Virus record (IMG/VR): IMGVR_UViG_3300029337_000010
Coordinates: 1-58,034 of that record
DNA from: a virus
Direction: 5' to 3' (one strand)
Length of the DNA: 58,034 nt
The position numbers and the translations under genes were made by a program. Position 1 is the stretch's first letter; each line of letters starts with the position of its first letter. Of the stretch, positions 46,119 to 46,623 are shown in pieces. The notes below the pieces were generated by a model. The model did no database searches. It was given only the letters and a program-made list of their open reading frames with translations, and had not been told where the DNA came from.

Positions 46119-46623
46119 AGAACCGCCATCAGACGGTTAGCAATAATGTTTTTCGTGCCATGCGCTGCACTATCCGGTTTGCAGCTTTTTACCGGCAACT
46201 TATTTTCAGCCAAAACATAGACCGCCTGCAAGCAAACAGCGTAATTTGACCGAATATGTGGGTAAGGATTTGCACCTCACATGACAACGACTTTCCGCAA
46301 CGGGTAACACCCTTTACAGGTTCCTTCATTGCCTTTTTAATTCAATGACTTGTTCCTAACCAAAGCGTGGTTGTCTTATGCTTAAGCGTCTACCTGTTCC
46401 GCCACCACCTAATTTCATGGATCATGCACCGTGGGATAGATGCACGAACCATGAATTGGAACTGCAACACATGACTGTGCGTGTGTCGACTTATATTCCT
46501 ACCGACATTTGCGGTAAATGCCACCGAACGGTCTCGCACCGCTCTTAACAGAAGCGTCCTAGTGGCGAAAGGAGAAATACGAACTTTTCGTATTCCGAGA
46601 TAAGCTTTAAACCTATCTCTCAA
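46119..46623 (-). ncRNA. Candidate large structured RNA (about 500 nt) between tRNA genes
   Basis: There is no credible ORF. At least 12 local hairpins fold on the minus strand, for example 46597-46619, 46576-46594 and 46174-46195. The sequence appears GC-richer than its flanks and has tRNA genes on both sides. Confidence 0.55.

Follow-up and report, generated by a model that had tools for sequence, protein, structure and literature searches.

A modular array of small structured RNAs in the tRNA gene cluster of a temperate gut siphophage

The tRNA array and its non-coding interval

The virus represented by positions 1 to 58,034 of the IMG/VR record IMGVR_UViG_3300029337_000010, a stretch of 58,034 nucleotides (nt) that was analysed at its full length and is termed the window below, is a temperate siphophage harboring an integrase gene (128-1330), an SPP1-type portal gene (40174-41607) and terL (42384-44117). 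A tRNA array on the minus strand is located between terL and a terS-like open reading frame (ORF; 48262-48984), a label assigned by eye to a protein that gave no family match in PHROGs and Pfam. Read along the minus strand, the array is composed of tRNA-Gln, an 89-nt tRNA-like gene, the interval 46119-46623, tRNA-Tyr, tRNA-Ser(GCU), tRNA-Ser(UGA) and a terminator-like hairpin (Table 1), and no internal promoter was predicted within it. The interval, which is the subject of this report, had been proposed in an initial annotation of the window to be one large structured RNA of about 500 nt, either a member of the ROOL or GOLLD classes or a new one. The finding is real, and it is re-described here as a modular array of small structured RNAs instead of a ROOL- or GOLLD-like giant.

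The position of the interval between tRNA-Tyr and an atypical tRNA-like gene, all on the minus strand, was confirmed by ARAGORN and Rfam, and the earlier view that it contains no credible coding frame was borne out by the relatives. Its sole sizeable same-strand ORF (46390-46623; 77 amino acids, TTG start, Arg-rich) is broken there at variable codons, and the frame is not conserved, with the first stop falling anywhere from codon 10 to codon 140 in 55 relatives. The GC enrichment and the density of hairpins that had been noticed by eye were also reproduced: GC amounts to 0.45-0.47 here, compared with 0.35-0.42 for the coding DNA on its flanks, and the minimum free energy (MFE) of the minus strand was -169.9 kcal/mol as against -142.3 +/- 6.5 kcal/mol for shuffled sequences (z -4.24; none of 100 shuffles was as good), while the plus strand gave a z of -0.62. 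Several stems in the interval depend on G-U pairs, which, together with the strand-specific z-score, argues for RNA rather than DNA structure. Since the interval does not code for protein, is conserved and forms, on the tRNA strand, helices with compensatory changes, it is, on comparative sequence evidence, a real non-coding structured RNA, and neither a translated region nor a random spacer.

The homologous loci whose collection the initial annotation had suggested as a check were assembled into a comparison set of about 250 related phage loci (individual relatives are cited below by L numbers), in which the interval is conserved and its helices display compensatory changes. A DNA pattern taken from the interval retrieved more than 120 loci, and a terminase query retrieved more than 599 IMG/VR stretches at 95-98% identity. 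The genome matches to the locus are Roseburia and Lachnospiraceae metagenome-assembled genomes (MAGs), which suggests a Lachnospiraceae/Roseburia host.

Table 1. Features of the tRNA array, listed in minus-strand order (SD, Shine-Dalgarno; R1, covariance model of the 5' motif)
Feature	Position	Strand	Remarks
89-nt tRNA-like gene	46624-46712	-	Rfam tRNA, 43.7 bits; 28-nt insert
Hairpin GAGAUA-GGUUUAAAGCU-UAUCUC	46597-46619	-	directly 3' of the upstream tRNA-like gene
10-bp hairpin GGAAUACGAA-AAG-UUCGUAUUUC	46574-46596	-	MFE structure; lineage-specific spacer module
5' motif	46516-46575	-	about 60 nt; only R1 match in the window
Anti-SD-like tract UCUCCUUUC	46567-46575	-	part of 5' motif
P1 GCCACU/GGUGGC	46561-46566 with 46520-46525	-	6 bp
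Internal loop AGGACGCUUCUGUUAA (UAGGACGCUUCUGUUAAG)	46545-46560	-	invariant; between P1 and P2
P2 GAGCGGU-GCGAG-ACCGUUC	46526-46544	-	7 bp; loop GCGAG
Hairpin H1b UACCG-CAAAUGU-CGGUA	46500-46516	-	optional; GCCGC-GGAGU-GCGGC in relatives; 3 covarying pairs
Variable hairpin, GGAAU...GUUCC around GACACA/UGUGUU	46458-46499	-	optional; longer unrelated modules or none in relatives
P3 hairpin	46416-46453	-	includes outer CAUGG/CCAUG extension
P3 stem CGUGCAUC/GGUGCAUG	46439-46446 with 46423-46430	-	8 bp; invariant loop UAUCCCAC at 46431-46438
tRNA-Leu-derived tRNA-like cassette	46255-46411	-	optional; 157 nt; T stem/loop at 46262-46280
Module UUCGGUCAAAUUACGCUGUUUGCUUGCAGGCGGUCUAUGUUUUGGCUG...	46199-46254	-	optional; in about half of arrays
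Hairpin CCGGU-AAAAAGCUGCAA-ACCGG	46173-46198	-	immediately 5' of 3' motif
3' motif (tRNA-leader motif)	46119-46175	-	57 nt; stops 2 nt upstream of tRNA-Tyr
P4 GUG/CAC	46155-46170	-	part of 3' motif; GCAU-containing loop
Linker GAAAAACAUUAUUGCU	46139-46154	-	conserved; between P4 and P5; model form ...UUGCUAA
P5 AACCGUC-UGAU-GGCGGUU	46121-46138	-	7 bp
tRNA-Tyr(GUA)	46028/46030-46118/9	-	ARAGORN; its 5' end sets the 3' end of the interval
Second Leu-shell cassette	45634-45740	-	degenerate; downstream of tRNA-Ser(UGA); D arm GGCGAAAUAGGUAAACGC; T arm GCAUGG-UGCAAAU-CCAUGC; no acceptor pairing
Terminator-like hairpin	45572-45600	-	closes the array; its only convincing one; also delimited as 45600-45580

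Conserved motifs and optional modules

Two motifs, which are candidates for a new RNA family, stand out in the interval. The 5' motif is described by the covariance model R1 as a CCUUUC tract, a 6-bp helix P1, a 17-nt loop UAGGAnnnUUCUGUUAAG and a 7-bp helix P2 with the loop GCGAG, and the single match of this model in the window scored 87.6 bits, the window sequence itself having been part of the seed alignment. P1 and P2 were recovered by RNAalifold without guidance, and compensatory double changes were found in 5 of the 13 pairs, P1 occurring in relatives as ACCAACU/GGUUGGU, GCCUCU/GGAGGU and ACCACU/GGUGGU. In the alignment of P1 and P2, 97.2% of the cells are paired versus 93.4% in shuffles, the observed values being reached by 0-1 of 500 shuffles, and slid controls of the 5'-motif alignment drop to 27-58%. 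The motif is 92% identical in relatives, while its flanks reach only 64-76%.

An anti-SD-like tract, (U/C)CUCCUUUC, is always present upstream of the 5' motif (46567-46575 in the window, about 8950-8960 in L084). We take the CCUCCUUUC tract to be identical to the 3' end of Firmicute 16S rRNA, and it could be an anti-SD surface, a pseudoknot partner of the AGGA in the loop or the mere complement of an antisense ribosome-binding site (RBS). The reverse complement of the anti-SD-like tract is a strong RBS, and an ATG lies 2-7 nt downstream of it on the opposite strand in some lineages, though not in the window.

The 3' motif is defined by P4 with its GCAU loop, the linker, P5 and a tRNA 5' end within 1-2 nt, and all of these are present at 46119-46175. 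P4 and P5 were recovered by RNAalifold, and three pairs of P5 are switched between the window lineage (AACC-GUC/GGC-GGUU) and a second lineage (AACC-CGG/CCG-GGUU), with 99.4% of the P5 cells paired and a covariation score that was matched by no shuffle. A tRNA or tRNA-like 5' end follows the motif after 1-2 nt in all 120 distinct contexts, 54 of which involve tRNA-Tyr, and tRNA-Tyr itself is 97-100% identical among relatives. The 3' motif without the 5' motif was found at 49 loci of a second phage group, mostly gut phage contigs of about 25-50 kb (up to about 90 kb), a form first seen in the GenBank entry MT835739. There it ends a non-coding leader of at most about 300 nt between the stop of the preceding ORF and tRNA-Tyr, some of these leaders having a TATAAT-type sequence upstream, and no other tRNA was found within the stretch examined. 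Conversely, L146 and L203 (a Lachnospiraceae MAG) have the 5' motif but lack the 3' motif.

Arrangements of this kind raise the question of whether the motifs are cis-acting leader elements of the tRNA or late operon, working for example on RNA polymerase by nut/put-like processive antitermination or attenuation, or on translation by SD sequestration, which we regard as rather unlikely. The location of the array between the terS-like gene and terL and the tRNA-Tyr leaders of the second group, some with their TATAAT-type sequence, would accord with such a role, but other tRNAs, not a promoter, precede the 5' motif of the window, and no convincing terminators follow the motifs. The internal loop ACGMUUCUGUUAA and the pentaloop hairpin presumably recall boxA and boxB in a loose manner, the likeness to boxA being weak. 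In L203, the 5' motif is placed 7 nt upstream of the ATG of terL and the 3' strand of P1 reads GGAGG, which would represent a sequestered SD sequence, yet L203 stands alone as a rearranged locus, and IMG/VR contained no second GGAGG variant of P1, negative-IUPAC scans yielding one P1 point mutant and no new P5 types.

Several further peculiarities were observed around the 3' motif. P2 and P5 consist of the same two strands in opposite order, and in L186 (about 3155-3215) a natural deletion has joined P2 to P5 via their common ACCGUC microhomology. Many relatives possess an extra 89-nt tRNA-like gene with a CGGAACG acceptor, together with a 77-nt spacer, between the 3' motif and tRNA-Tyr (L001 about 3993-4166, L008 3785-3948), both of which are absent from the window; the spacer helices CUGUAUGCG/CGCGUACAG and GCGCGG/CCGCGC interleave like an H-type pseudoknot.

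Among the individual helices that had been listed for the interval, GAGAUA/UAUCUC, GCCAC/GUGGC, CCGGU/ACCGG, AACCG/CGGUU and three base pairs of GUGC/GCAC are backed by compensatory changes in relatives. Thus the GAGAUA/UAUCUC hairpin becomes GGAAUGG-GUUUAACGAU-CCAUUCC with a covarying stem and a retained loop, and CCGGU/ACCGG covaries to CUGGU/ACCAG or CCAGU/ACUGG and, in the second phage group, to UCCG/CGGA. Two others did not hold: GUGGU, supposed to pair with ACCAC, is the acceptor strand of the tRNA-like element and pairs with CCCACAU, and at the place of CGUG/CACG the conserved helix is the 8-bp stem of P3. The latter appears in relatives as CGGGUGCC/GGUGCCUG, with three G-U pairs (L001 type), or as CAUGCGUC/GGCGCAUG; three of its pairs covary and 98.9% of the cells are canonical in about 105 distinct rows, the covarying pairs of P3 and of H1b being derived from query-anchored counts. 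H1b is missing from the minimal forms described below, unrelated hairpins stand in other lineages at the position of 46574-46596, and the optional module 46199-46254 encloses a weak terminator-like hairpin (46240-46221).

These data also bear on the notion of a DNA-level element, such as a pac or cos site, a protein-binding site or a recombination hotspot with incidental inverted repeats, which we consider hardly credible. Such an element might be expected between the terminase genes, where the array sits, and the primary sequence is highly conserved even in the supposed loops, but many of the G-U pairs, including the three in the L001-type P3, would turn into C-A mismatches in the opposite strand, the z-score of the fold depends on the strand, and the 3' motif of the second group is found elsewhere in the genome, still attached to a tRNA 5' end.

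The most conspicuous of the optional modules is the tRNA-like cassette, which is laid out as UAGGUGG-U8-GGCGGAACAGGUAGACGC with the D arm, a 13-nt 'anticodon' loop, a variable region expanded to about 80 nt, a 6-bp T stem, the T loop UGCAAAU (G55) and a final CCACAUA strand, and whose D arm GGCGGAACAGGUAGACGC we take to resemble that of bacterial tRNA-Leu. The GG-UGCAAAU-CC hairpin, which had been reported twice and was indeed found at both places (46262-46280 and 45639-45657), is the T arm of this cassette in the former instance and lies within the second, degenerate cassette in the latter. The acceptor stem, the D arm with G18 and G19 and the 7-nt T loop are those of a tRNA, whereas the 5-bp anticodon stem with a 7-nt loop and the length of 70-95 nt are lacking, and the cassette was called neither by ARAGORN, with or without introns allowed, nor by the Rfam tRNA model. 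An intron-containing tRNA was rejected, as ARAGORN -i makes no call on the cassette; a T-box leader was rejected likewise, with no RF00230 match at E<=10 and AAAUUAGGUGGUGGCGG recognized as the 5' end of the cassette. An apparent G3-U70 pair of the alanyl-tRNA synthetase type in the L008 cassette was dismissed after re-registration of the acceptor, which makes the wobble G4-U69.

In the cassettes, the acceptor/D/T shell stays constant while the interior is replaced wholesale, at least four types having been distinguished in elements of 109, 141-143, 156-157 and 250 nt, and no Rfam match was obtained for the interiors. The acceptor UAGGUGG/CCACAUA forms 6 of 7 pairs in the window and 7 of 7 in relatives, covaries at 5:68 and 6:67 and occurs as UAGGCUG/CAGCCUA and UAGGCAG/CUGUCUA; the T stem varies among GCAAGG/CCUUGC, GCGAGG/CCUCGC and GCGUGG/CCACGC, and the T loop is either UGCAAAU or UUCAAAU. 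The cassette is missing from L048, L055, L077 and all minimal forms, and because it is absent from many arrays it is best described as an insertion into a core and not as part of a single fold. The noise of a generic search for expanded tRNA-like elements was too high for counts.

A similar exchange is seen in the 89-nt gene upstream of the interval. Compared with the normal 73-nt tRNA-Ile(UAU) that relatives have at this position, its acceptor and T arm are identical and its D stem is compensated, while the anticodon arm is replaced (33 nt). The ARAGORN -i call of a tRNA(CUA) with a 15-nt intron at this gene is distrusted because no stop-codon (TAG) recoding is visible in the phage ORFs. The second Leu-shell cassette has a homologue in the type D cassette of L134.

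With so many rearranged elements, the interval might be regarded as functionless debris, that is, decaying tRNA pseudogenes and recombination scars within a degraded precursor spacer, an explanation that we deem unlikely. The rampant mosaicism, exemplified by the chimeric elements of L064, L005 and L186, the weakening substitutions in the cassette of the window and the lost acceptor pairing of the copy at 45634-45740 are as decay would leave them, but the motifs are 92-99% conserved against 64-76% in their surroundings, they have been kept across two phage groups with compensatory changes, and their loops are invariant in more than 100 distinct arrays.

Known RNA families and the single-fold question

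In 55 relatives, the upstream tRNA and tRNA-Tyr are separated by 337-704 nt, and entire blocks are present, absent or replaced. Both motifs are present in 118 distinct arrays, in which the gap between them extends from 66 to 508 nt, and 21 distinct minimal forms retain a core of about 140 nt (L084 8959-9101 being an example) with the motifs about 66 nt apart. For these minimal forms, RNAalifold predicts a long-range helix in which the 5' motif pairs with the 3' motif over 13 bp. This helix was rejected in favor of the local fold, since changes in the L116, L001 and L167 types disrupt it and are not compensated, in contrast to those in the local helices P1 and P5, which are. The comparison indicates that the interval is a string of separable structured RNA modules and not one RNA.

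The idea of a single large ornate RNA of about 500 nt that folds as one unit and belongs to ROOL, to GOLLD or to a comparable new class has been largely refuted already and is held to be very unlikely. The locus is, like ROOL and GOLLD, non-coding, highly structured and near tRNA genes in a prophage context, which is the setting described for these families (PMC5737381), the z-score of the interval as a whole is -4.2, and the 13-bp helix could close the two motifs in the minimal forms. Unlike these families, each of which forms one fold of 580-800 nt, the locus splits into independent modules of 57-160 nt; the modules are individually optional, the spacing of the motifs varies over the range given above with the tRNA-like cassette dispensable, the motifs are also found separately, and the long-range helix loses pairs without compensation where P1 keeps them.

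Covariance models led to the same outcome. The search that the initial annotation had recommended was made by cmscan with Rfam 15, at the gathering score for the whole window and at E<=10 for 45300-47400, and returned nothing in 46119-46623 at E<=10, including for ROOL (RF03087), GOLLD (RF01998), HEARO, OLE, RNase P, transfer-messenger RNA (tmRNA), group I and group II introns and the small ribozymes (hammerhead, hepatitis delta virus (HDV), twister, pistol and hatchet). ROOL, GOLLD, HEARO, OLE, RNase P, introns, T-boxes and small ribozymes are consequently not supported, no single conserved fold of about 580-800 nt was seen, and tmRNA was also rejected with ARAGORN -m, which finds 0 genes. 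The modules of a 140-nt minimal homologue and of 11 related arrays matched neither ROOL, GOLLD nor any other family. Across the window, the minimal homologue, the cassette variants and the relatives, the Rfam matches are tRNAs, Hammerhead_II and, in the other lineage, RAGATH-21.

The match to RAGATH-21 (RF03097) was obtained in the second-group leader of L209 (5192-5267; 90 bits, E 2e-18), the one leader scanned, and the anti-SD-like tract precedes it there (about 5175-5190). In RAGATH-21-like leaders, this RNA immediately follows the CCUCCUUUC tract and precedes the 3' motif and tRNA-Tyr, so it is placed as the 5' motif is in the window, the 3' motif being common to both settings. The model of RAGATH-21 features P1, an 11-nt junction CUUAAuAGAAA, P2, a GAAA hairpin and a UGCAAUU hairpin; the last of these, GGa-UGCAAUU-uCC, has a T-loop-like loop as in the GG-UGCAAAU-CC hairpins of the window, and only this UGCAAWU hairpin is alike. 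RAGATH-21 gave no match in the window at E<=10, and homology of the 5' motif to RAGATH-21 was rejected, since R1 finds nothing in RAGATH-21 leaders; the two 'heads' are positional analogues, for which homology is not demonstrated. RAGATH motifs are named after genes associated with twister and hammerhead ribozymes, and the window also carries a hammerhead.

Stable small RNAs inside tRNA operons are known from phage T4, whose species 1 and 2 RNAs are of this type, and from Escherichia coli, in which the 3'ETS-leuZ spacer acts as a sponge. The modules are comparable with these as non-tRNA RNAs co-transcribed with tRNAs, whose ends would be made by tRNA-processing nucleases, and differ from them in that the motifs of the window are bipartite and tolerate inserted cassettes, no sequence relation being expected. 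tRNA shells with foreign cargo are represented by engineered tRNA-scaffold RNAs, the tRNA-miRNA TMERs of MHV68, tmRNA and YrlA. As in these RNAs, an acceptor/D/T shell encloses a foreign or expanded interior in the cassettes and could confer processing by RNase P and RNase Z as well as stability; as differences, the interiors measure 50-190 nt, the carrier is a bacterial virus, ARAGORN reveals no tmRNA features and Rfam gives no YrlA or tmRNA match. HDV-like ribozymes are built as a nested double pseudoknot, with a catalytic C in J4/2, and self-cleave at the 5' terminus. Manual threading of 46574-46623 onto such a fold yielded a P1-like alternative pairing without P2, P3 or P1.1, and no match to an Rfam HDV family was found. 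Theta ribozymes, whose cleavage sites lie within 5 nt of the associated tRNA (PMC10879173), resemble the present motifs as small structured RNAs that adjoin tRNAs of gut Caudoviricetes and are linked to tRNA maturation, but the 3' motif is upstream of its tRNA, not downstream. No recognisable description of the 5' or 3' motif appears in the main texts of the theta-ribozyme paper and of the phage structured-RNA surveys.

Elsewhere in the window, the proteins neighbouring the array provided nothing informative on RNA processing in PHROGs and Pfam. A type II hammerhead ribozyme (51225-51293, plus strand; 67.6 bits over the full-length model) starts at the stop codon of the plus-strand ORF 50660-51226, and Hammerhead_II is also present in L084 (4175-4243) and L092 (7079-7147). 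A plus-strand tRNA at 4676-4741, missed by ARAGORN and matched by Rfam from model position 4 only (46.6 bits), is without the first three acceptor pairs and is flanked by a promoter-like site TTGACT-17-TATATA upstream and a terminator-like hairpin downstream; in view of the integrase gene (128-1330), it may be what is left of an attP/tRNA site, or else a further odd tRNA. Furthermore, the minus-strand ORFs 12306-12671 and 11580-12302 are adjacent and in frame with a single TAG codon between them, and amber read-through would fuse the pair.

Putative processing, function and significance of the array

Somewhat better than evenly, we favor the explanation that the array is transcribed as one polycistronic RNA, from which the separable modules are released by RNase P and RNase Z as tRNA-linked small RNAs. 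The interval would be co-transcribed with the tRNAs, host RNase P would generate the 5' ends of tRNA-Tyr and the tRNA-like cassette, and RNase Z-type cleavage would occur 3' of the upstream tRNA-like gene and of the cassette. About three stable products could thereby arise, each with a protective terminal hairpin, namely a 5'-motif RNA of about 210 nt, a tRNA-like RNA of 157 nt and a 3'-motif RNA of about 135 nt. The invariant single strands CCUCCUUUC, UAGGACGAUUCUGUUAAG, UAUCCCAC, the GCAU loop and AUUGCUAA would be the likely contact surfaces for proteins or RNAs, and the modules, acting as small RNAs or leader elements, would help the phage tRNAs, and tRNA-Tyr in particular, to be expressed or processed.

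Several points weigh against this explanation. Processing by RNase P and RNase Z is an inference, as is the stability of the released RNAs, and pre-tRNA leaders do not usually have a hairpin that stops 2 nt short of the RNase P site, where it might impede cleavage. Owing to the very high conservation, most pairs show no variation at all, and the three switches in P5 may represent a single evolutionary event between two clades, the pair-count control having been reached in 57 of 500. In energetic terms, the two motifs could also pair with each other over a long range, and the cassette of the window, whose acceptor contains a G-A mismatch and whose T stem contains a G-U pair, fits some decay.

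A bolder and distinctly more doubtful proposal is that these phages run a modular 'RNA cassette' platform, in which Leu- and Ile-type shells would be handles that confer processing and stability on swappable payloads of 50-190 nt between the two motifs, shuffled between phages by recombination, with the payloads and/or the motifs acting in trans. They might, for instance, be decoys or sponges in an arms race with host defences that centres on tRNA, or regulators bearing an anti-SD. If true, such a platform would be nature's equivalent of engineered tRNA scaffolds and would constitute a novel class of small RNAs in phages.

The phage lineage is very common in human gut viromes, as reflected by the number of IMG/VR stretches that share its terminase, and its array includes two motifs that are invariant in sequence, supported by covariation and not represented in Rfam 15, in addition to tRNA shells with swapped interiors. 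The 3' motif links the locus to the orphan small RNA RAGATH-21, for which a genomic grammar is defined for the first time, consisting of the CCUCCUUUC tract, a head motif, variable inserts, the 3' motif and tRNA-Tyr. If its products are stable, the array would offer a tractable entry to the role of non-tRNA RNAs in phage tRNA clusters, a decades-old question posed by ROOL, GOLLD and the species 1 and 2 RNAs of T4.

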